A stretch of 64,000 nucleotides of DNA from Nitrospira sp. UBA5698. Its GTDB lineage: Bacteria; Nitrospirota; Nitrospiria; Nitrospirales; Nitrospiraceae. The notes under the pieces were generated by a model. It was not told the origin of the DNA, made no database searches, and saw only the letters and a program-made list of their open reading frames with translations. The stretch is taken from positions 60,136 through 124,135 of the forward strand of contig DIHK01000007.1 in NCBI GenBank assembly GCA_002420115.1, read 5' to 3'. A program made the position numbers and the translations under genes. This document shows positions 20,100 through 37,077 of this stretch, in pieces (within the stretch, counting starts at the first letter, position 1; each line of letters opens with the position of its first letter).

Positions 20100-20177
20100 G
20101 GTGGGTGTAGCTCAGTTGGTTAGAGCGCCGGATTGTGGATCCGGAGGTCGCGGGTTCGAAACCCGTCATCCACCCCA
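20100..20177 (+). tRNA. tRNA-His (GUG) with G-1 and encoded CCA
   Basis: Acceptor GTGGGTG/CATCCAC, anticodon arm CCGGA-TTGTGGA-TCCGG, T-loop GTTCGAA, C discriminator. Confidence 0.97.
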
Positions 20178-21388
20178 CTCGCCCTTCTCGGAACTACTGA
20201 ATACTCAAGCTGATCCGAAGAAACCGGCCCCATAGCGGCACCTACCGGTTGCGCGGGGGTTGCAGAATTGGGCAGTCCCACGGGTGTATCCAGCCGATCG
20301 ACGGCTTGCTTGTTCCCACCTGGGATGAGGTGTCCGTAGAGGTCCACGGTCACCTGAATGGAGCTGTGGCCCATCTGATCTTTCACATAGACCGGGCTTT
20401 CCCCGTTCTGCAGCAGGAGCGAGGCGAAGGAGTGACGTAAGTCATGGAACCGGACTTGTCGCACGCCCGCCCCTTTCAGCAGACGGAAGAATTTCAGGCG
20501 GATCCGGTTCTGATTCAGTGGCTGGCCCTTCTCGTTACAGAAGACCCATGGGGGGCCTTCCTTCCATCCACGTGCGGCCGCTTGAAACTGCCGATCAAGC
20601 TGCAGCGTTTCCAAGGTAGCTGTCAGTTCACGAGACAGGTCCACGCGTCGAGATTCGCCGCTTTTGGGCGTAGTCATCTTGCCGTGTGTGAAATTTCGAC
20701 GGACCTCCACGAAACGCCCCGCAAAGTTGATATCCTCCCACTGAAGGGCCAGAAGCTCGCCTTGCCGTAATCCGGTTCGAGCTGCACAGAGGAACGCCGG
20801 ATAGAGAGTCGGCGCCATGGTCTTCGTATAGGCCAAGAAGAGGGCTAGTTCCTGTCCGGTCAAGGGATTGATCGAACGGCGTTTGCTGATCTTCGGCAGG
20901 AACTTGCCGGGCCGCAGGGCCGGATTGACCGTGACGAGATTATCCTCCACGGCGTGACTGAACAAGCTGCTGATTGTGCGGATGATGTTCTGCACGGTCT
21001 TGGCCGACAAGCCCCGTTGCAGACAGCCGACGGCGAACGCCTTCACCTTCTCCCGGGTGATCTGTTGGAGATCCTGTCCGCGAAAGACCGGGAGAACATA
21101 ACGGTCGAAAATCTTTCGGTAGTCGTCGTGCGTGGTATGTTTACGGGTCTGTTCGATCCGTTCAAGAAAGGTCTGGGCATAGGCGTCGAGGGTCACGCTG
21201 GTCTGTGGGCGGTCGAACGCCGCTTGCCCCAGTGCCAGCCGAGCTTGGATCTGTTGCGCTACCTGCTTGGCAGCTTTCCTGCCAGGCTCTCCGGTGCCAA
21301 TCCGCTTGGCCTTGCGCGTGCCTTGATGGTTGATAAAGACCCACCAAGCCCCTTTCCACTCTCGAATCTTCACGCCCATGAGGCCCAT
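20120..21388 (-). CDS. int: Tyrosine recombinase/integrase; C-terminus reads through attL into the tRNA antisense strand
   Basis: ARTGLRQGEL, RFHDLRHSFAS, MGHSSIQVTVDLYGH. Confidence 0.95.
   Translation of the reverse strand: MGLMGVKIREWKGAWWVFINHQGTRKAKRIGTGEPGRKAAKQVAQQIQARLALGQAAFDRPQTSVTLDAYAQTFLERIEQTRKHTTHDDYRKIFDRYVLPVFRGQDLQQITREKVKAFAVGCLQRGLSAKTVQNIIRTISSLFSHAVEDNLVTVNPALRPGKFLPKISKRRSINPLTGQELALFLAYTKTMAPTLYPAFLCAARTGLRQGELLALQWEDINFAGRFVEVRRNFTHGKMTTPKSGESRRVDLSRELTATLETLQLDRQFQAAARGWKEGPPWVFCNEKGQPLNQNRIRLKFFRLLKGAGVRQVRFHDLRHSFASLLLQNGESPVYVKDQMGHSSIQVTVDLYGHLIPGGNKQAVDRLDTPVGLPNSATPAQPVGAAMGPVSSDQLEYSVVPRRASGVDDGFRTRDLRIHNPAL
20155..20181 (+). repeat. attL core, 27 bp TTCGAAACCCGTCATCCACCCCACTCG
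   Basis: Exact copy at 37051-37077; covers the tRNA-His 3' end. Confidence 0.95.
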
Positions 21389-21399
21389 CTTGGGGGATC

Positions 21400-21714
21400 C
21401 TATGCTCGTTCTGTCAAGCGCCGAAGGTTAGGTGCCTGGACTTGCGAAACGACCGCGTCGACCAGTTCACTAAGATTGTCTGTACAGTTAGAGACTCGGT
21501 GTCTGGCAATCCATCGATCGAACTCTTCACGTTTCACAAGAATCTTTCCTTCAATTCGGTAGCAGGGGAGTGGATGGTTTCGATCAACAAGGCGATTCCT
21601 CAACCATCTGACCGAAGTGCACGAATAGGTCGCCAACGCTTGGAGATCGAAATAGCCGGGTGCTGCCTTGTTATCCAAGGATCTCATAGCGAGCGTCGTC
21701 TTGGTGCCCGTCAA
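21400..21714 (-). CDS. Excisionase-like winged-HTH protein
   Basis: YFDLQALATYSCTSVRWLR..LPCYRIEGKILVKREEFDRW; immediately upstream of int; start may be 21687. Confidence 0.8.
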   Translation of the reverse strand: MTGTKTTLAMRSLDNKAAPGYFDLQALATYSCTSVRWLRNRLVDRNHPLPCYRIEGKILVKREEFDRWIARHRVSNCTDNLSELVDAVVSQVQAPNLRRLTERA

Positions 21715-24195: not shown

Positions 24196-24212
24196 GATGT
24201 CTCCTTCGCGTA

Positions 24213-24677
24213 CTACGTAAAGAACCGATGGATCCCTGGCAAGTCCGGCTGATTGCCGTCAGGCAATTTCTTCACTCTTGAGTGGGCCACGGGGGACGCG
24301 CCGAGCTCTGCCAGCGCGCGATGATAGGCCGTCCTCGCGGTATCCCGAATACGAACCTCCGGCCGCATGCGGATGACAGTTCCCGCCTCGCCCGTCGTTT
24401 CATAGGTCAGGCCTTTCTCTTGGATAATTCGATCTGCAGTCGTCATCTGTGAAAACGCAGAGACGGCGACGAGTAACATGCCTCCACTGGCAGGACTCAA
24501 AATCGGAGCCAGGCGCTCGACCAACCGATCCCACTCTTCGCTCGCGAGCGTGTCGAGGCTCGAGGGCTTCTCAATTTCTCCAGCCGTAAACGGCTCACCG
24601 GTATCCGATACCGGCCGATGGCCCGGGTTACCGGAAAGCAGCCTTAACCGCTCGTCTTTGGGTTTGCGGCCCTTCAT
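24213..24677 (-). CDS. Terminase small subunit, P27 family
   Basis: MKGRKPK..LLSGNPGHRP, LDTLASEEWDRL, ELGASPVAHSR (start refined to ATG 24677). Confidence 0.88.
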   Translation of the reverse strand: MKGRKPKDERLRLLSGNPGHRPVSDTGEPFTAGEIEKPSSLDTLASEEWDRLVERLAPILSPASGGMLLVAVSAFSQMTTADRIIQEKGLTYETTGEAGTVIRMRPEVRIRDTARTAYHRALAELGASPVAHSRVKKLPDGNQPDLPGIHRFFT

Positions 24678-25051
24678 AAATCTTCCATCACGTTCGGAAT
24701 GGTTGGGGTGCATCTCAGTGCATGACACGCGACTAAATACGGTTCTTTCCAATCTCTCGACGCCAACTTAGAACCTGGCATTCCCCACCGACGCGCCAGC
24801 TGTTCGATCTTGACCCGATACGAGAACGCCTGCGCGGCTAACTCAATGAGAGGTCCGTCATGAAGGAAGATGCCGTCTGGCTGCGCTTGCCGTTCGGCTA
24901 CGAGCCGGTTCCATTCGCGTAAGGCATCTGCATCAAGTCCAGCGGGCATGGGAGGAGTTCCCTTCATCGGTCCGACAATTTCGAAAGGATGAGCGACCTT
25001 TCTTGAAGTTTCATGCTCGGCTTGTGGACCTTTACTCATGATCACCTTCAT
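24674..25051 (-). CDS. Divergent second P27-type TerS paralog
   Basis: PAGLDADALREWNRLVA aligns with PSSLDTLASEEWDRLVE; ATGA overlap with terS. Confidence 0.55.
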   Translation of the reverse strand: MKVIMSKGPQAEHETSRKVAHPFEIVGPMKGTPPMPAGLDADALREWNRLVAERQAQPDGIFLHDGPLIELAAQAFSYRVKIEQLARRWGMPGSKLASRDWKEPYLVACHALRCTPTIPNVMEDL

Positions 25052-25061
25052 CCATCACAGA

Positions 25062-25160
25062 GGGGGAAAATATTCCCAATTTCGCGGCGGCATACGGTGA
25101 GGGAAGACGGTCGGTCTACGCTGAAAACCTGTAGAGATTTCACCCCCCTACCCCCTCCTT
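25062..25160 (-). other. Putative cos packaging site (HK97-like)
   Basis: Between HNH and terS genes: GGGGGTAGGGGGGTGAAATCTCTACAG..GACCGACCGTCTTCC..CGCGAAATT, resembling cos regions of HNH-terS phages; exact nick site not determinable. Confidence 0.65.
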
Positions 25161-25492
25161 CTTTCTGAACCTGTCTTGATATTGTGACATCGCGTGCATA
25201 GAGGCTGAAGGTTACACTCATCATCCGTGCCACCATTCACCTTCGGCCTTATGTGGTCCACCAGCACAGCCCTGCTCCGCATACACAAACGACAGAATGG
25301 GAATCGTTTCAGATACTCAGCCCTCAGCTTTCTCCATTGCCGATCGTACCCTCTTGCCGTCGAGCTCCCACGCCGATCGTCATAGAGCCGTGGTTTCTCC
25401 GCTTGTGGCACCACAGGCCGCGCATGCTTCGCACAAGGGCCCAGCACCGGACATCCAGCAACGGGGCAGGGTCTCTTCGGCAGCATCGGCAT
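25148..25492 (-). CDS. Terminase-associated HNH endonuclease (HK97 gp74-like)
   Basis: RGSSTARGYDRQWRKLR..PFCRLC..VDHIRP..GG..NLQPLCTRCHNIKT; AGGAG RBS before ATG 25492. Confidence 0.9.
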   Translation of the reverse strand: MPMLPKRPCPVAGCPVLGPCAKHARPVVPQAEKPRLYDDRRGSSTARGYDRQWRKLRAEYLKRFPFCRLCMRSRAVLVDHIRPKVNGGTDDECNLQPLCTRCHNIKTGSERRRG

Positions 25493-25628
25493 CAGGCCAC
25501 TCCTTGTCGTATTCCGGCGGCAGTCGCAGCTAAACCCCTCGGGTTGAGATCTGCGACTCCGGGCGGACGTGTACGGTAACGAGTCGCACACGCTCTCCAT
25601 GCTGACTTGTGACCATTCATTGCATATC

Positions 25629-25895
25629 CATCGTTGCAACTCCCCCTCTTATAAAGAGGGGGGTTGCAATCAACGATGCCCTGCAACGATCACCGTTGCA
25701 GGGAAACGGTTTGTGAATCAATGAGTTATAGAGAGTTGCAACGCTGCAACGATCTGCAACGATGAAAAGGCTGCAACGATGCGCTGCAACGATGAAATTC
25801 ATAAGCCATAGTTGCAACGAAAACCCTTTCCTATGGCGATGTTTCAGCGATTGTGCAACGATGCAACGCTCTGCAACGATATTCCTGCAACGATG
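25629..25895. repeat. Iteron-like array, putative origin: 11 direct + 2 inverted TGCAACG, GC hairpin 25634-25669, IHF consensus 25716-25728
   Basis: Counted by eye; AATCAATGAGTTA matches WATCAANNNNTTR; lies immediately 3' of the helicase-like gene. Confidence 0.75.
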
Positions 25896-25912
25896 GCTGA
25901 ACGGGGATGAAC

Positions 25913-27151
25913 TCATCGGTTCACACAAGTCCATTTCGTCTCGCGTCCACTGCCGATCGAGTGCCACTTCTGAGCATTCTGGCGCGACAGGGTACTCTTA
26001 ATCGTGGCCACGGGCGCCGCCAAGGCATCGGCAATCTCTTTGGCCGAATAAACGCCGCCGTCCTTTTCGAGAAAGTTCCGGATCCGGCTGGCAATAGGGA
26101 GCCCTCGCTCGAGTTCAAGCGTCTGGCTCAGGTCGCACGCTTCGTACGCCATTGCCGTGTTCGTCGCATTCTGGCGCACGCGCAAGCCGATGGGCGGATG
26201 TAGCCGGCTCAAGTTCGACTTACGATTGAAGAGCCCGAGCACGGATTCATCGGCGCCAACGTCCTGCTCTTTCTTCAGCTCCCAAGTCGACCGGGCAAAG
26301 TTCTTATAGAACACCGAGCCATAAATGCCGGCCTCTTGTTGCTGCTCGTTCATCTTGGGAATATGAGCCAGCACCAGAGCACCCCGGTTCAGCATCCGCA
26401 GGGCCCGAAACGCTTTCGTGGCCGCTTCAGCACTTGCATCGCCACAGGTTGCAGCAGCCAGACTATCCAGGATGATGAAATCAATGCGCTCAAGTTGAAC
26501 GAGCCGGAGCAAGGTCGGGAGAATGTTCCAGATTGGTTCGTGATGGGTTTGATAAATCAGCTCGGCAGACTTCAGGGCAGGGTGGCAGGTGGCGATCGCC
26601 TCACGGCGCCGCGCGTGCACATCCAGCGTATCCTCGTAATCCAGGTACAACACTCGACCTCTCACGGCACTCAGGCCGGCCACCGATTCCCCACTCGAGA
26701 CGAGCATACCCATCAAGAGTGCCAAAGAGCTTTTCCCGAGCCCGCCATCGCCATACAGAATGGTCACCTTGCGAGAGAACACAATCGGATTAAGCTGATA
26801 GCTGAGAGTTTCGACCGGCGTCTCGGCGTTCAGCCGATGGGGTGGCTCGCCCTCTCGGAAGCGGCGGAGAACAAGCACAGCGGTCGCTTCGATCAACCGA
26901 GTCCAAGCAGGCAGCTCCAGCCGGCCATCATATTCATGAACTTTCTTGGCGACGCGGCTTTTGTCACCATTGAGATTGACCCTCGCACCTTCACACAGAG
27001 TCTTGTCTCCGTCGAGCACCGTGAACTCTGAAACAATCCCCTGCGATTGTCTGGTGAGGTATTCCACGAGAAAACGAATGTTGCTTTCCGGCCAATGCAC
27101 AGAGAACCCATTGCCCAAGTCGGAAATCTCAGGATCGCGGGGGGACATCAA
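25913..27151 (-). CDS. RepA/DnaB-like AAA helicase with C-terminal HTH
   Basis: Walker A GDGGLGKS, YLDYED, Walker B IILDSL, LAHIPK, GSVF. Confidence 0.85.
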   Translation of the reverse strand: MMSPRDPEISDLGNGFSVHWPESNIRFLVEYLTRQSQGIVSEFTVLDGDKTLCEGARVNLNGDKSRVAKKVHEYDGRLELPAWTRLIEATAVLVLRRFREGEPPHRLNAETPVETLSYQLNPIVFSRKVTILYGDGGLGKSSLALLMGMLVSSGESVAGLSAVRGRVLYLDYEDTLDVHARRREAIATCHPALKSAELIYQTHHEPIWNILPTLLRLVQLERIDFIILDSLAAATCGDASAEAATKAFRALRMLNRGALVLAHIPKMNEQQQEAGIYGSVFYKNFARSTWELKKEQDVGADESVLGLFNRKSNLSRLHPPIGLRVRQNATNTAMAYEACDLSQTLELERGLPIASRIRNFLEKDGGVYSAKEIADALAAPVATIKSTLSRQNAQKWHSIGSGRETKWTCVNR

Positions 27152-31512: not shown

Positions 31513-32046
31513 TCAGATAACCATGCGAGCCACCTCCTGACGGTCGTTCGACACCGGTCGGAACTCCCGTTCCAACAAGTCTGGAAGCCCCTGTGCAAAT
31601 GGTGACAGTCCGCTCTTAAGACAATGCTTCCTGGCCAGCAGGAGAAATTCGTTCATCAGCTCCGGGTTATCCGGAAGATTGCGAACCCGCGCAAGCACTG
31701 CCTTCTGAACATTCTTGCTGTCGGGCTGCTGATACCGGAGCGCGTTTCGGATGAGGAGGAGGTTCGTTTTCTCATCGAATCGAATGAATCCCTCCTCCTC
31801 GAGTTTCAACAGCATGTCCTTGACCCGCCGGAGCGGCCAGGCCATATCCGCAGCGACGTATTCCGGCGGCAACACAAAAAAGCCTTCCAACGTGCGGTGC
31901 TTCGTCGTCAGAAGGTGCAACGCGAAGAGCCTCTGCGAGTCTGGCCAGGTGGCGACCTTCTCATCCGACCAAAAGTGACAAGCTATGCGGTAATACCTCG
32001 GCACATCGGGGCGCTTTGGTTTATTGGTTTGCTCGTCGTCCAACAT
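31513..32046 (-). CDS. Phage replication initiator / replisome-organiser N-terminal winged-HTH protein
   Basis: RYYRIACHFWSDEKV..LFALHLLT..H..LEGFFVLP..YVAADM..LEEEGFIRFDE..LLIRNALRYQ. Confidence 0.75.
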   Translation of the reverse strand: MLDDEQTNKPKRPDVPRYYRIACHFWSDEKVATWPDSQRLFALHLLTTKHRTLEGFFVLPPEYVAADMAWPLRRVKDMLLKLEEEGFIRFDEKTNLLLIRNALRYQQPDSKNVQKAVLARVRNLPDNPELMNEFLLLARKHCLKSGLSPFAQGLPDLLEREFRPVSNDRQEVARMVI

Positions 32047-32066: not shown

Positions 32067-32477
32067 TTAGTGAGCCGTCGATCGACTCATGGCACGGCCA
32101 GTCCTTCGCGTACTAGGCATCTGTAACGGATCAATCGGATCGGAGTTGCTGAATAATTCATGAGTGAGCCGAACATAGGTGACGAGCTCGCTCACGTCGT
32201 CAAACTCACTTCTCAATTCGTCAACGATGAGTTGCACAATGCTGGCATCGATATGTGATCGGCTTTCTGCAGCCATGAACAACAGATCCAACCGCTTCTT
32301 ACAGTTCCCGAGAATGTACAGGGCGAGGTCACCATCTTCTGCAAACCATTTGAGGCCGAATGGTTTCTGATCAGTCACGTCCCTGATCTGTCCATCTTGA
32401 TCGCGATGGAGAACTCTTGCCTGTAACGCCAACCTCGGCTCGGTTTCCTCAGTTTCGGTCGTCGTCTTGGTTTTCAC
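32067..32477 (-). CDS. Hypothetical protein
   Basis: AGGAGG RBS, GTG start. Confidence 0.6.
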   Translation of the reverse strand: MKTKTTTETEETEPRLALQARVLHRDQDGQIRDVTDQKPFGLKWFAEDGDLALYILGNCKKRLDLLFMAAESRSHIDASIVQLIVDELRSEFDDVSELVTYVRLTHELFSNSDPIDPLQMPSTRRTGRAMSRSTAH

Positions 32478-32960: not shown

Positions 32961-33062
32961 ATACCTTCAGCTTATGAGCTGACAAGAATCAGGCGGCACG
33001 TGCCGAGTGCCTTCATTGCGATCCATCCCCAAGACCCAGCAGGAAGAATTACGAGGCACACG

Positions 33063-33521
33063 ATGAAAAGCTCGATCACCTTTGGACGGCTGGGCACCCA
33101 CAGCCTACTGGCTTTCTTCCTTATCGCCTTTACTCTGGGCTGTACACGCCTCACACCGCAAGAACGGGAACACTACGCTTCTCGTGTCTATGATATCCCT
33201 CATGACCGCGTGTTCGAAGCAGTCAAAGAGCGGGTGCGGCAATACCCGATGGGTCTACAAGAGACTGATCTACAGCAAGGCCTTGTGAAAAGTCGGATTG
33301 GTGGGACCACGCCGGGCATCGGAGCGACCGTCGGCTATCAAATCACCGTCATGACCACGGCGGAAGGCCAGCGGACGAGGGTGGTTCCAACCTGGCAGAT
33401 GAATATTTCATCAGAACCAACCAAAACCCACTTGCTTCCTGTCACGATCGACGATCGGCCGTTGCTCTATTTGGAGTTCTTCGACGCACTCGATGAACAG
33501 CTCGAGAAAGCACGTCAGTGA
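33063..33521 (+). CDS. Lipoprotein of unknown function
   Basis: Signal II FTLGC; start refined to ATG 33063. Confidence 0.75.
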   Translation: MKSSITFGRLGTHSLLAFFLIAFTLGCTRLTPQEREHYASRVYDIPHDRVFEAVKERVRQYPMGLQETDLQQGLVKSRIGGTTPGIGATVGYQITVMTTAEGQRTRVVPTWQMNISSEPTKTHLLPVTIDDRPLLYLEFFDALDEQLEKARQ

Positions 33522-33534
33522 GGAAAAGGCACCA

Positions 33535-33966
33535 ATGAGGTATGCCGTCGCATTACTGTTGCTCCTCGCGCTGTCCGCGCCTTCACTGGCAGGCGAAAAG
33601 GGTAAGTTGGTCAGCCTTCTTGCCGATTATGCTGATTTCAAACATCGCGTCCAAGACATCAGGACAACCCGGCAGAGCGGTTACGCAAGCGACAGTAAAG
33701 AACTACTAGAACTCAGGAAAGAGATTCTCGCTGCACTCCAAGATGTAGACGACTATCAGACCAAGCTGAATGCCCGAACAAGAGACGATCCGGCCAATGA
33801 AGTGCCTCTCGCGCTCACGTACGCCTACAGCGCAATGTTTCATATCGTTTCAATGGAATTAGATCGAAACCTCTATCGATCCAATTTACCTCTTAAGCTG
33901 TCAGAAAAATATGCTGACATCTGGGGGATGGTTGATCCCTTAATCCCTGCCTTCTCTGCCCCGTAG
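33535..33966 (+). CDS. Secreted helical hypothetical protein
   Basis: Signal MRYAVALLLLLALSAPSLA. Confidence 0.75.
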   Translation: MRYAVALLLLLALSAPSLAGEKGKLVSLLADYADFKHRVQDIRTTRQSGYASDSKELLELRKEILAALQDVDDYQTKLNARTRDDPANEVPLALTYAYSAMFHIVSMELDRNLYRSNLPLKLSEKYADIWGMVDPLIPAFSAP

Positions 33967-34290
33967 AAACAACTCAAGCACTAAAATTCGAGCTCTTCGC
34001 AAGTCTGCCTATTATGCAGGCATCAGTGTGCTGATTGCGCCGAGGTTGTGGGGTTGCGACTGTCCTGCCAGGATTTTCACTTCTCTGCATGGCCGAACTC
34101 TTGATATTGCCGGATTTTCCAGGTTTCCGCCTCGTCAGATTGTGACTTCGAATCACGGTCATGACCGGTCGTGGTCTTGCTTGCCCATTTTTTGAGGTAA
34201 CCCCAATGGGGAATTCGCTGAGCCTCCTGCACCGCTAGGCTTCACTCAGACAGCCACTGATCACCAGAAACCTGTGAAGGAGTCGCAACC

Positions 34291-34695
34291 ATGCACACGC
34301 TGAACAAGAGGTTTGTGCACCGGATCTATTCACGGTTCCTTGTACACTTTCCGATGATGTATCTGGGGCAGACCGTCACCGGCCAAGGGATTGTCCGGGA
34401 GTTATCCCTGGTGGGGTGTCAGGCCCTCAGCAACGCTCCTGTGATTGAGGGCACGTCCCTGAGCGTAAGACTCGCTCTGCCGAGTTACGAGAAGCCGCTG
34501 GTTATCGAGCGAGCCACCGTGAAATGGGTTAAGGGATTGGAGTGTGGACTAGCCTTTGACCACCATGACGAGCGGGAGCGAGTGCGACTCCGGCAGGTGC
34601 TAAATGAGCTGCTCGCTCGTAGACGCTACAACGGCTTGACGACGGAAGCCCCTCACACTGACACGCCCAATGCACCTCTGACCGCTTGCCCCTGA
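34291..34695 (+). CDS. Single-domain PilZ protein
   Basis: RIYSR (RxxxR) and ELSLVG; VKW..G.AF. Confidence 0.8.
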   Translation: MHTLNKRFVHRIYSRFLVHFPMMYLGQTVTGQGIVRELSLVGCQALSNAPVIEGTSLSVRLALPSYEKPLVIERATVKWVKGLECGLAFDHHDERERVRLRQVLNELLARRRYNGLTTEAPHTDTPNAPLTACP

Positions 34696-34792
34696 GCCCC
34701 CCTCTTTCGATGTACCTCGTTCAGTTCTGGTGGGAATCGGACGTCCTGATACGGTTATCTCAGACACGATCACGACACAGGAGGACACCACA

Positions 34793-35032
34793 ATGACCTG
34801 TACACGATGTCAAGGACTCATGCTGGAAGAGCAGATAATCGACATGGAAGCAGCGTATGGCGAGATGTGGAGCCTCAGCTCCCGCTGCGTTAATTGTGGC
34901 CATCGACATGATGCGGTGATCCAGCAACACCACCAAGCCTACTTGCGGCCAGTGGCTCTCTCCCAGACAGTCGCCCGGTCAGAATCCGTGGATCTGTCAT
35001 GGGATTCGGAACAGGAACCACTGGCAGCCTAG
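34793..35032 (+). CDS. Small zinc-ribbon protein
   Basis: MTCTRCQGLM..RCVNCG; AGGAGG RBS; ends LAA. Confidence 0.8.
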   Translation: MTCTRCQGLMLEEQIIDMEAAYGEMWSLSSRCVNCGHRHDAVIQQHHQAYLRPVALSQTVARSESVDLSWDSEQEPLAA

Positions 35033-35080
35033 CGGTAAACACCCAGCCCACAGCTTTTCGAGCACGAAAGGAACACGGTC

Positions 35081-35443
35081 ATGAAGCCATCCACGATCCT
35101 GGTCATTGAGGATCAGGCATCCGTCCGTAAGCTCCTGGCGCAGGTTCTCGAAGAGGCTGGGTACCAGGTCTATCAGGCGGTGGATGGCCGACAAGGGCTC
35201 GCCCAGTTCCACGCCCAGCCCGTCGATCTGGTCCTCACGGATCTAGAGATGCCTGAAATGAACGGGTTGGACCTGATCTTGGAACTGACCCGCACGTTCT
35301 TGGATGTCAAAGTCATTGTCATGAGTGGCCACTCGGCAGGGAAGCTACAGACGGCCCGACTCCTTGGGGCACGGCAAACCTTTGTAAAGCCATTCAACCT
35401 TCCCGAGTTGCTTCGCGCCATTGAGTACGAACTCCTCCACTAG
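35081..35443 (+). CDS. Single-domain response regulator
   Basis: ILVIED, TDLEMP..G, MSG, KPF. Confidence 0.92.
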   Translation: MKPSTILVIEDQASVRKLLAQVLEEAGYQVYQAVDGRQGLAQFHAQPVDLVLTDLEMPEMNGLDLILELTRTFLDVKVIVMSGHSAGKLQTARLLGARQTFVKPFNLPELLRAIEYELLH

Positions 35444-35561
35444 ACGCAGGGAGCTATCCCACGGACACACATTTAGCGGGTTTCCATCCGATGTCCCTCG
35501 GCGTCTAAGAGCATCCAACAAATTGATTGACTCGGACAGTTCGCATTGATAGCATTTTGTC

Positions 35562-35891
35562 ATGCGCAGGATGGCCGCCTTTCTGGTGTTCTTGCTGCTC
35601 GGTCTCACCTTCAACGCGTACGCCTGCATCCTGCCTTTACAAACCGTAGCCCAGACGGATTGTTCCTCTGACACACAGGAGCAATCACGGCAGACATGCG
35701 ACGCGTTTCTTGAGATAGGGCCACAGTCACAGCTTTCTCTAAACCATGCCCTCAGCTCATTCACGTTTGAGTCACCAGTACCGAGTCTGCCGTTTGAGAC
35801 GGTCCATTCTATTTCTGCGCCGACACCATCGCCTTACCACGCCGTCTTTCCCATTCATCTCTCAATCCCAACTACCGTTTTGAGGATTTGA
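35562..35891 (+). CDS. Small exported Cys-containing protein upstream of the copper storage gene
   Basis: Signal peptide; TTGACT(35527)-N17-TAGCAT promoter 6 nt before ATG; ends VLRI. Confidence 0.65.
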   Translation: MRRMAAFLVFLLLGLTFNAYACILPLQTVAQTDCSSDTQEQSRQTCDAFLEIGPQSQLSLNHALSSFTFESPVPSLPFETVHSISAPTPSPYHAVFPIHLSIPTTVLRI

Positions 35892-35960
35892 TACCCTCCT
35901 TCAGGTTTCTGTGCACCAACAGCAACGTGGGCGTGAACAGCAATCCACGAAGGGGGACTT

Positions 35961-36461
35961 ATGTCTGACAACAACACGATAGGCAGACGATCATTTCTAT
36001 CGACCGGCGTATCTCTGGTGGCTGCAGGTGTGTCGTTCATGACTTTGCCCAAGGCTTATGCTTCGTCCGGCGGCGAGTCAGACGGCCAGCCGATGTTGGC
36101 TCCAGGAGGGCATCACATGGACGAGGAGATGCAAAAGTGTATTCAGCTCTGCCGAGACTGCCATGCGATGTGCACTCAAACGATTGCACATTGTTTGAAG
36201 CTGGGAGGCCGCCATGCGGCACCCGAACACATCCGCTTATTCCTGGACTGTGCACAGATATGCACGACCACTGTCGATTACATGCTTCGGGGCTCCGCGG
36301 TTCATGACCGAGTTTGTCGCCTCTGCGCTGACCTGTGTATGCAGTGCGGAAAGGATTGTGAACAGATGGCAGGAGACGATCAGATGGTAAAACAGTGCAT
36401 TGAAACGTGTCGAAAGTGTGCAGAGTCTTGTGAGCGTATGGCATCACAAGCGGCAGCATAG
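35961..36461 (+). CDS. Tat-exported four-helix-bundle copper storage protein (Csp/DUF326)
   Basis: IGRRSFL Tat motif; CxxxCxxC repeats (CIQLCRDCHAMC, CRLCADLCMQC, CIETCRKCAESC). Confidence 0.9.
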   Translation: MSDNNTIGRRSFLSTGVSLVAAGVSFMTLPKAYASSGGESDGQPMLAPGGHHMDEEMQKCIQLCRDCHAMCTQTIAHCLKLGGRHAAPEHIRLFLDCAQICTTTVDYMLRGSAVHDRVCRLCADLCMQCGKDCEQMAGDDQMVKQCIETCRKCAESCERMASQAAA

Positions 36462-37050
36462 CCGTCCAGCGGCTATCTCGCTCGTGCTTAGTCCGCGTGG
36501 GCTGTGGCAAAGCCACTGCCTGCGCGGGCCAGGTCGGTCCCGCATCTGTGCATTGCCTCATTGGTGCCAATCTGACACCAAAATGCCAAGGCACACCATG
36601 ACCAGCGATGAAGAGCTGTCACAGATCCTCTTCGTTTTTTGATGATTTGTCTTGTTGACTGTCCTCAGGTAGGTGTAGGCCGAGACTCCTAATCAGCGGG
36701 GTCAACTCAGAATATTGCCCACTTTATGCTACCAGCAAAGAGCAAACCAGCCCCACCAGCGCCAACCGTGCCACCTTGCTGAGATTTTGTTTCTTGTGGG
36801 GTTAAGGTTGTCTGAGGTAGAGCGATCTGACGCACCACGCAGCAAGAAACGGCAGGGGGCGATATGCCGATGCCAGGAGTGAGGGGTGACACAGGCGTTC
36901 ATGACTCCTCTTCTTCGGACTGAAATGAATGAGGGGAGTCGGATGTCTGGTTGCAACTGGTTGCAGACTTGCTGATTTCTTGCTCAGTTTTTCCGTGATT
37001 TGCCGAGCTATCCTGTTGATCTTGTTGAGGTAGCGATGTGTCCGGTGCAA

Positions 37051-37077
37051 TTCGAAACCCGTCATCCACCCCACTCG
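37051..37077 (+). repeat. attR core (duplicate of tRNA-His 3' end)
   Basis: Identical to 20155-20181. Confidence 0.95.

Follow-up and report, generated by a model that had tools for sequence, protein, structure and literature searches.

The element described here is an integrated, satellite-like island of Nitrospira sp. UBA5698 that carries, directly beside a cohesive-end packaging site (cos), two overlapping genes of the small terminase subunit (TerS) family. It lies in a stretch of 64,000 nucleotides (nt) of contig DIHK01000007.1 (assembly GCA_002420115.1, positions 60,136 to 124,135 of the forward strand); this whole stretch is called the window, and coordinates refer to it unless a locus is named. 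The downstream gene of the pair encodes a complete TerS. The upstream one encodes a protein of 125 amino acids (aa), denoted O125, which is almost certainly a TerS paralog and has been reduced to the helical core of that protein. The assignment of the surrounding element to the phage satellites, together with that of the adjacent site as cos, is very probable. It is proposed that O125 hetero-oligomerizes with a TerS, for which we would give a probability of roughly 0.45; the direction of its effect on packaging is held with lower confidence still.

A complete TerS and a truncated paralog

The downstream protein belongs to the P27 family of small terminases. It matches Pfam PF05119 with 53.2 bits (cutoff 24.7), covering 95 of the 98 profile positions, and phrog_83 at 3.9e-22. 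Searches recovered 113 homologs, several of them named P27 TerS, and identity to the TerS proteins of bona fide phages that possess genes for the large terminase subunit (TerL), portal, and capsid is 50-61%. The protein begins with MKGRKPK (ATG at 24677-24675), i.e. with a full GRKPK N-terminal arm, and ends in the tail ...ELGASPVAHSRVKKLP; arm and tail are essentially the same as in phage TerS, and residues R4 and R134 are invariant in an alignment of 41 sequences of this family. The AlphaFold2 (AF2) model (pLDDT 79) shows helices at residues 43-55, 62-88, 106-125, and 129-134 and a beta-hairpin at 91-104. Compared with the PDB, HK97 TerS (8pop/6z6e) gives the highest TM-scores (TMt 0.56-0.57, probability 0.63-0.85); these matches have Foldseek E-values of 0.6-0.9 and rank 21st by E-value, at the top by TM-score/probability. 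When the PDB was searched by sequence, using TerS or the profiles of TerS and O125 as queries, all matches were at chance level, so that the relation to HK97 TerS is detectable by fold comparison only. No TerL homolog is found beside terS within the element, where the next gene encodes a tape-measure-like protein; this is expected for the TerS of a satellite.

A preliminary description of this DNA, made from the sequence alone, had taken the upstream open reading frame (ORF) for a TerS paralog, and profile and fold comparisons bear this out. The signature reported there as common to both proteins, P-x-x-LD-x-x-A-x-x-EW-x-RLV, is present as PSSLDTLASEEWDRLV in TerS and as PAGLDADALREWNRLV in O125, and the late motifs, given as ELGASP and ALRCTP, belong to the family-wide patterns Y..AL.ELGASP (TerS) and Y..AC.ALGCTP (O125). 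BLASTP aligns the two proteins with 32% identity over 56 aa (E 3e-4). An hhalign comparison of 19 O125-family members (including upstream ORFs from related loci) with 41 TerS sequences reaches 97.7% probability and an E-value of 1.8e-12 over 103 columns, pairing O125 residues 26-125 with TerS residues 28-143 and leaving a 13-residue gap at the TerS hairpin; with only six O125-family sequences, the E-value is 1.4e-7. Cross-matches between the hidden Markov models (HMMs) of the two families run both ways. The AF2 model of O125 (pLDDT 83.7) contains helices at residues 41-56, 63-88, and 102-111 and no hairpin. Searched with Foldseek against BFVD, a collection of predicted viral structures, it matches almost exclusively small terminases of the COG3747/P27 type, the best of them with an E-value of 2.2e-4, a probability of 1.0, and a TMq of 0.63. 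Against the PDB, HK97 TerS ranks first, with a weak score. The preliminary description had named the lack of a TerS fold at 24674-25051 as an outcome that would contradict it; hhalign and the BFVD search both found a TerS-type fold there.

In single-profile searches, O125 has no Pfam match at E <= 0.1, and phrog_83 appears only at E 0.028. The O125 family is rare, with 11 clusters among 1.84 billion representatives in an exhaustive HMM search and five close relatives in a word-based search. No TerS reached database-wide significance in the exhaustive profile search, and the case for paralogy is accordingly made by profile-profile and fold comparison. Short TerS-like proteins of a second subfamily (120-131 aa) are encoded at the corresponding place in other loci; precomputed PF05119 matches exist for some of them, and one is named ‘phage terminase small subunit’ by its source.

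The O125 frame opens with an ATG at 25051; translation more likely begins at the ATG at 25039 (MSKGPQ...), with AAGGTGATC in front of it. Some lineages lack the N-terminal ~30 residues, which have low pLDDT in the window protein. In L004, one of the related loci (numbered with an L) that are introduced below, an in-frame stop at L004:9060-9130 cuts away the N-terminal extension, and a new start of the O125 gene follows at MPAGLD; given this interruption, the window protein can probably dispense with its first ~30 residues.

What remains of TerS in O125 is the helical core only. The family lacks the basic N-arm (MKGRKPK with the invariant R4), an absence already pointed out in the preliminary description, as well as the beta-hairpin (TerS residues 91-104) and the C-terminal tail (TerS residues 130-154, with the helix that carries R134), and thus everything that follows the LG(A/C)(S/T)P motif of TerS. 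Since all three segments are missing, O125 is to be regarded as a truncated paralog and not as a complete TerS. Compared with TerS, fewer conserved basic residues are found in its last helix, which has two cysteines instead. In HK97, TerS residues 24-124 form a nonameric ring with a basic channel, and the sequence is read only by the N-arm (Arg7) of one protomer together with the C-terminal helix (Arg128) of its neighbor (PMC11331095). By analogy, O125 would correspond to the ring core without the DNA-reading parts.

In residues 105-119 (~24695-24739), the O125 family shows the motif Y-x3-C-x4-C-x-P, which stands in place of Y..AL.ELGASP of TerS. Its tyrosine (Y105) and first cysteine (C109, 19 of 19 sequences) are invariant; for C114 this holds within subfamily 1 and almost holds in the family as a whole. 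The motif could form a metal or disulfide site between subunits.

Distribution of the paralog among related loci

Related loci were gathered via O125 homologs, TerS homologs, and scans with the TerS profile, and fell into two classes. Satellite-type loci have the layout Rep(AAA_25)-...-[HNH or other small ORF]-cos-short TerS paralog-TerS-tape-measure-Xis-Int and lack TerL, portal, and capsid genes. This class comprises the window element, L001/2/13, L003, L004-6, L007/8/14, L009/10, and L017, as well as L020, which is cut by a contig end; L143/144 is a more distant satellite-type relative that also has a capsid gene. Their TerS proteins are only 52-72% identical across at least eight lineages with intact ORFs. 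Phage-type loci are arranged as HNH-cos-(0 to 3.5 kb)-TerS-TerL-portal-protease-capsid and represent 13 lineages, among them prophages in Nitrospira metagenome-assembled genomes (MAGs; L015/16, L018/29, and L019). Two of these, L015 and L016 (JALHMZ010000010.1, 43710-64180 and 5391-25861), lie ~38 kb apart on one Nitrospira MAG contig and have identical coordinates and scores for all packaging/head genes tested and identical cos regions; either the prophage is present in tandem or in duplicate, or the assembly has produced an artefact.

When 3,715 ORFs were searched with the O125-family profile, no satellite-type locus with the above layout was without the paralog. In the 13 phage lineages, with flanks of up to 10 kb covered on each side (less where contigs end), the profile found only TerS itself and no second TerS-family ORF. 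Among the sampled loci, O125 is thus satellite-specific as far as sequence comparison tells. One satellite-like contig, L027, serves as a natural control: its TerS belongs to the L020/L143 clade, it is devoid of the paralog, and it has the A-rich tract beside cos that is typical for the phages (see below).

Coupling of both genes and selection on O125

The overlap of O125 with terS by ATGA, another observation of the preliminary description, is readily confirmed, with the O125 stop codon TGA at 24676-24674 and the terS start codon at 24677-24675. The same junction is present in all eight satellite lineages with the TerS/tape-measure arrangement that were examined (window, L001, L003, L004, L007, L009, L017, and L020) and usually has a GGAG/GGGA-like motif 5-9 nt upstream; the module of L143 has a 1-nt TGATG overlap instead. 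In pairs with unsaturated synonymous divergence (dS), the ratio of non-synonymous to synonymous substitution (dN/dS) of O125 is 0.10-0.22, pointing to purifying selection. At the same time, its dN exceeds the TerS value by a factor of 2-3; O125 retains 34% and TerS 68% identity when the window is compared with L007. As dN/dS is low and dN nevertheless elevated relative to TerS, these values fit a functional protein engaged in an arms race.

The conservation of the ATGA junction and its weak Shine-Dalgarno-like motifs would also be expected if the O125 frame mattered mainly in cis, through termination-reinitiation onto terS or as a part of the packaging signal, and the protein were nearly functionless; it also fits that the O125 gene lies where phages have ~100 nt of cos-proximal DNA. 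Such a role is very unlikely in view of the purifying selection on the protein, its confidently predicted fold, and the motifs kept down to ~30% identity across two subfamilies, given that a TerS fold is not expected to persist in a mere spacer.

Rapid non-synonymous change bears on a second alternative as well, namely that O125 is a pure dominant-negative decoy, functionally like Ppi of the Staphylococcus aureus pathogenicity islands (SaPIs), which would enter or cap the TerS rings of the helper phage and thereby inactivate them, leaving the satellite TerS to package alone. An elevated dN is what would be expected of a protein tracking diverse helper targets. Also in favor, O125 has kept of TerS the oligomerization core only, the segments that read DNA and most of the basic residues in the channel helix being gone. 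Its restriction to satellites among the sampled loci agrees with this, and so does the recurrence of terminase-targeting inhibitors, for which Ppi, Rpp, Gpi, and TerI are examples. The strict ATGA coupling to the satellite's own terS, however, suggests a stoichiometric partnership with that protein. Moreover, O125 does not resemble phage TerS any more than it resembles satellite TerS, and a decoy would leave unexplained how satellite TerS escapes poisoning. We consider a pure decoy unlikely.

The cos site and its surroundings

The preliminary description had placed the gene pair beside cos and an HNH gene. The latter is identified by Pfam and PHROG matches (Table 1), and cos, which had only been asserted, is now supported by comparison with phage contigs. 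Contigs from five different phages (L012, L022, L024, L030, and L031) start at one identical base, ^CCTCACGG (CCTCAC), ~100 nt upstream of terS; the L011 contig starts 3 nt before that base. In contigs that read through, the start base is located inside a conserved block, GGGGGTAGGGGGG-TGAAATCTCTA..-..TAGACCGA..GTCTTC^CCTCAC....GCCGCCGCGAAATTGG, directly after HNH. Pairwise alignment of the corresponding window block shows 80-90% identity with the Nitrospira prophages L015, L018, and L019 and 84-88% with other phages. The cos core of the window closely copies that of related phages of the HK97 type (HNH and P27 TerS). Because phage contigs start at the matching base, the end of the packaged DNA is placed between 25103 and 25102, an assignment based on contig ends and not on read termini. 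For the other cos terminus, viral contigs were scanned for TAGACCGANNGTCTTC; nearly all matches were of the kind expected by chance, and none of the contigs ended at the motif. A conserved inverted repeat in cos (TCTAC...GTAGA) with compensatory changes was considered and dropped, the pattern being inconsistent across lineages.

The minimal TerS site of HK97 extends from +15 to +29 relative to the cut and adjoins an A-tract. At about +17 to +27, the sequence CGCGAAATTGG is invariant in phages and satellites, a position that matches the HK97 site. Since the N-arm and C-tail of satellite and phage TerS are essentially the same, the satellite TerS probably reads the same core site as phage TerS. 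What differs beside the cos core is a single part of ~20 nt: where related phages have an A-tract, the window has a T/C-rich tract. The T/C tract occurs in seven of the eight O125-positive elements, L017 being the exception, and an A-rich tract, GGAAAAcAAAAAG, in L027, the satellite without O125, as well as in each of the 13 phage lineages. The T/C tract may be a specificity determinant that changes how the terminase views the site, or equally no more than the leader of O125.

In a further possible role, O125 would act alone as a homo-oligomer or dimer, as an accessory cos factor or an adaptor for TerL/HNH, e.g. as a recognizer of the T/C tract, and would not mix with TerS. The presence of the tract in nearly all O125 elements and its absence from the phages and L027 would fit, and so would the conserved features that O125 does not share with TerS (invariant Y105 and the two C-x4-C cysteines with their possible inter-subunit site). 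O125 has no recognizable DNA-binding motif, however, and its N-terminal extension is variable or missing; L017 breaks the correlation with the tract, which may be a 5' leader only. A stand-alone function is less likely than a decoy and is given little weight.

The HNH protein is of the kind that works with HK97-type terminases; the 3' end of its gene overlaps the G-rich start of the cos block, and homologous HNH genes are found directly upstream of cos in phage relatives. The gene is polymorphic: one metagenome contig has 25 unrelated nt instead of 25148-25483. It is also absent from the sister satellites L004, L007, and L009, which have other small ORFs in its place. Because its presence varies among sister elements and in the metagenome contig, HNH is dispensable for the element, unlike cos, O125, and TerS.

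Architecture of the element

The element spans 16.9 kb, is inserted at tRNA-His, and is bounded by exact 27-bp attachment (att) repeats; the 3' end of the integrase ORF overlaps tRNA-His on the opposite strand (Table 1). Contigs from two 2025 metagenomes represent the empty site, fusing 20180/20181 straight to ~37314/37391, and read depth in these two metagenomes is 5-10x for the element and 55-77x for the flanks (~one tenth). On the minus strand, the modules follow each other in the order Rep/iterons, HNH, cos, O125, TerS, tape-measure-like gene, Xis, and Int. The iteron array is situated between the AAA_25 Rep gene and HNH and is probably the replication origin of the element. Two HTH_3 regulators are encoded inside the element, and the cargo region (~33000-36500) comprises genes for a PilZ-domain protein, a stand-alone response-regulator receiver, a Cys-rich DUF326 protein, and secreted-looking small ORFs; the same cargo genes are present in L001/L002.

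Table 1. Features of the Nitrospira element, with positions in the window.
Feature	Position	Strand	Evidence or remark
tRNA-His	20101-20177	+	
attL	20155-20181	+	27-bp repeat: final 23 nt of tRNA-His and 4 extra bases
Tyrosine integrase	20120-21388	-	Pfam Phage_integrase 8.6e-28; phrog_1 7e-69
HTH_17 Xis/AlpA-like protein	21400-21714	-	HTH_17 2.6e-5
Tape-measure-like protein, 799 aa	21796-24195	-	PHROG tape-measure families, 8e-25 and below
TerS, P27-family small terminase, 154 aa	24213-24677	-	Pfam PF05119 (Terminase_4), phrog_83
ATGA stop/start overlap O125/terS	24674-24677	-	read directly from the sequence
O125, truncated TerS paralog (almost certain), 125 aa	24674-25051	-	profile-profile and fold comparison
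Intergenic stretch, 96 nt (HNH to O125)	25052-25147		
T/C-rich tract, GAATATTTTCCCCCTCTGTG	25056-25075	-	between cos core and O125 start
cos core block, 80 nt	25076-25155	-	GGGGGTAGGGGGGTGAAATCTCTACAG...TAGACCGACCGTCTTC^CCTCACCGTATGCCGCCGCGAAATTGG
HNH endonuclease, 114 aa	25148-25492	-	Pfam HNH 1.8e-10; phrog_144 8.3e-28
Iteron array	25617-25896	.	8 direct TGCAACGAT copies and several inverted ones
AAA_25 (RepA/helicase-like) replication protein	25913-27151	-	Pfam PF13481 1.6e-16; kept in all sister elements
DnaD-like loader	31513-32046		phrog_1701 at 2.5e-20
attR	37051-37077	+	exact duplicate of the 27-bp repeat

Pfam/PHROG searches and locus comparison revealed no TerL, portal, protease, or capsid genes within the element. 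It has the hallmarks of satellites resembling phage-inducible chromosomal islands (PICIs), namely an att-bounded island with integrase and HTH genes, a replication module of its own, and packaging genes without the set that builds a virion. It departs from them in its tail gene: such satellites should have none, and here a tape-measure-like gene follows terS. This gene begins 17 nt past the terS stop codon, belongs to a conserved O125-TerS-tape-measure module, and has the same position in L003, L004, L007, L009, and L143; residues 90-294 of its product share 26-31% identity with annotated phage tape-measure proteins in tblastn searches. The element is probably a helper-dependent phage satellite and belongs to an undescribed family of satellite-like elements, mostly from Nitrospira.

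The tail-type genes of the module vary among relatives. In L004, a weakly matching tail-completion/Neck1-like ORF (L004:9889-10287; phrog_5, 4.5e-5) lies between terS and the tape-measure gene, and L017:917-2994 holds a short tape-measure fragment and a 566-aa minor-tail/fibre-like gene. L143 has its tape-measure-like gene directly after terS (L143:10870-13572), such genes encoding ~800-900 aa, and in L001/2/13 the gene has shrunk to an ~80-aa remnant. Just upstream of cos, other satellite-like relatives have single head genes: L027:4645-5220 and L020:8782-9489 look by eye like HK97-type prohead proteases, and L143:7824-8999 is a Pfam Phage_capsid gene. This variation suggests a mosaic spectrum between minimal and capsid-encoding satellites. 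The packaging module of the window is also tied to the ~31.8-32.1 kb region by exact direct repeats of 14-15 nt, TCCTTCGCGTACTA at 24202-24215 (terS/tape-measure junction) and 32102-32115 (upstream of the DnaD-like gene) and CGTATTCCGGCGGCA at 25508-25522 and 31857-31871, which could have arisen by chance, be regulatory boxes common to both places, or be scars left by recombination.

Tail-type genes at the place where a phage late operon would sit (the tape-measure gene and, in relatives, the tail-completion-like and minor-tail-like genes) could be taken to mean that the element is a decaying prophage remnant and O125 a degenerating, roleless tandem duplicate of terS; that the L001 tape-measure gene is only a relic could be read in the same way. 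We rejected a degraded prophage as the main explanation and deem it extremely unlikely. The same compact architecture with intact ORFs recurs in at least eight lineages despite their diverged TerS, and the element is equipped with Rep, iterons, Int, and Xis of its own and flanked by exact att repeats, its insertion site being empty in related strains. In addition, O125 is under purifying selection, and no fragments of TerL, portal, or capsid genes are present.

Comparison with known packaging systems

The preliminary description had based its idea on Rpp, the packaging redirector of cos-type PICIs of Escherichia coli (RppA/B/C, e.g. of EcCICFT073). The premise roughly holds insofar as Rpp is a binding partner of helper TerS and its N-terminal winged helix-turn-helix (wHTH) resembles the DNA-binding domain of lambda TerS (Fillol-Salom et al., 2019, PMC6739421), and does not hold as far as kinship is concerned, O125 being no Rpp homolog and built the opposite way. 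Rpp chains were neither among the PDB sequence matches of O125 (E <= 10) nor among its top 50 Foldseek matches in the PDB, and its predicted fold is the TerS helical core, not a wHTH. Both are small satellite proteins related to a part of TerS; a heterocomplex with TerS, redirection of cos packaging to the satellite, and harm to the helper, which are established for Rpp (PMC6739421), are what is proposed for O125. In both cases, the cos of the satellite resembles that of the helper and differs beside the cleavage site. Rpp, however, combines a Nu1-like wHTH with a coiled-coil dimerization domain of its own and adds DNA specificity, whereas O125 has a P27/HK97 ring core and lacks the DNA-reading segments. 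PICIs of the Rpp type are without a terS of their own, whereas here O125 is coupled to a complete TerS that the element itself encodes. The terminase families involved also differ (lambda Nu1 for the Rpp systems, P27/HK97 with HNH here). O125 is comparable to Rpp only in how it might work.

Other satellites share single traits with the element. SaPIs use a TerS of their own (TerS(S)) to direct helper TerL and possess a second small protein acting on TerS, Ppi; they differ in that they are packaged by a headful pac mechanism, whereas the present element is of the cos/HNH type and its second protein is derived from TerS. Ppi is not known to be a TerS paralog. The cos SaPIs (SaPIbov5 type) and the PLEs, elements that resemble phage-inducible chromosomal islands, are similar in carrying a copy of the helper's packaging site (pac in the case of PLEs) and depending on the helper terminase and HNH endonuclease. 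Neither cos SaPIs nor PLEs are known to encode a TerS; unlike them, the present element encodes a TerS, a TerS paralog, and, in some lineages, HNH. Inhibitors of the packaging machinery are represented by Gpi of PLE, which acts on TerL, and by Listeria TerI, which acts on TerS.

The packaging region as such resembles that of HK97 (gp1 TerS, gp2 TerL, and gp74 HNH; PMC11331095), with HNH followed by cos and TerS, a TerS whose fold may be similar (TMt 0.56), and a conserved site at ~+15 to +29, after which the phage relatives have an A-tract. The element in the window lacks TerL and encodes two members of the TerS family, as opposed to the one TerS gene present in HK97 and in each of the 13 related phage lineages examined. 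With the PICIs and capsid-forming PICIs (cfPICIs) delineated by SatelliteFinder, it has in common an integrase, HTH regulators, a replication module, TerS, the insertion at a tRNA, and an HNH gene, which is occasional there; it differs in that no capsid-morphogenesis gene was recognized and in its size of 16.9 kb, compared with a median of 9.5 kb for PICIs (de Sousa et al., 2023, PMC10085698). In that survey, tail components are a hallmark of phages and not of satellites, and Nitrospirota are not among the highlighted taxa (PMC10085698). Because tail components are thus tied to phages, the conserved tape-measure gene is a second unusual feature of the element.

A possible mode of action of O125

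The preliminary description had suggested that mixed rings may act against cos of the helper and to the benefit of the element's cos; as a hypothesis, the following course of events is proposed. A helper phage would induce the element, which would excise and replicate by means of its own Rep and iterons. The satellite TerS would bind the common cos core and recruit helper TerL (and HNH) for cutting at cos and for the filling of helper capsids. Synthesized at a constant ratio to TerS, O125 would co-assemble into hetero-oligomeric rings with the satellite TerS and possibly with the helper TerS too. Such mixed rings would contain fewer DNA-reading arm/helix pairs and a less basic channel, which would alter engagement or termination of the terminase at cos and bias packaging to the satellite and away from the helper. 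O125 would then be, in functional terms, a redirection or interference factor like Rpp or Ppi that is built from the ring core of TerS.

Several points weigh against this proposal. HK97 uses one arm/helix pair per nonamer, and dilution of the arms need therefore not change the function of the ring. O125 might form rings of its own or bind TerL. The cos core, including the position equivalent to the HK97 TerS site, is common to phages and satellite and not different, and as the N-arm, the C-tail, and this core all match those of phages, comparison of these parts gives no direct sign of a different specificity. The T/C tract may equally be the mere 5' leader of the inserted O125 gene, and L017 has an O125-like gene together with a phage-like A-tract. 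The lineage counts given above are not phylogenetically independent, and no helper phage was identified for this genome.

A more specific version of the co-assembly model takes O125 for an ‘armless’ subunit that dopes TerS nonamers so that the terminase handles satellite and helper cos differently, the satellite supplying its own tape-measure protein for the tails it uses and cos-O125-TerS-tape-measure being the hijack module of an undescribed satellite family from Nitrospira and nearby taxa; taken as a whole, this is rather unlikely. As an example, clamp closure could become less likely, and the 16.9-kb genome could then be packaged as a dimer (~34 kb) into a head of ~40-kb size. The L012 phage contig that begins at cos has 40.5 kb, and two satellite units amount to 33.8 kb; it is a matter of speculation that a factor lowering termination at every cos helps to fill a head of helper size. 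Alternatively, the mixed ring could read the T/C-tract variant of cos.

Implications

Satellites are known to redirect packaging by a TerS of their own (SaPIs), by an adaptor that binds TerS and brings in a new DNA-binding domain (Rpp), by inhibitors of TerS or TerL (Ppi and Gpi), or by a copy of the packaging site. If the proposal holds, a coupled TerS paralog consisting of the ring core only would be a fifth strategy. If, in particular, O125 dopes TerS rings, redirection would be achieved by ring composition and not by an added DNA-binding domain or by blocking TerS/TerL. This bears on a question raised by the structure of HK97 TerS with DNA, i.e. how many arm/helix pairs are needed per nonamer and what sets recognition and termination at cos. 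Owing to the small size of the proteins and the base-exact definition of cos, the central claims are open to in vitro tests that need no culture of the host.

In a literature search of incomplete coverage, no account turned up of either a satellite TerS with a coupled TerS-core paralog or satellites in Nitrospira. Satellites with a tape-measure gene are unusual in themselves. The finding points to the presence of phage satellites in Nitrospira, nitrifiers that are important in wastewater treatment and soils.

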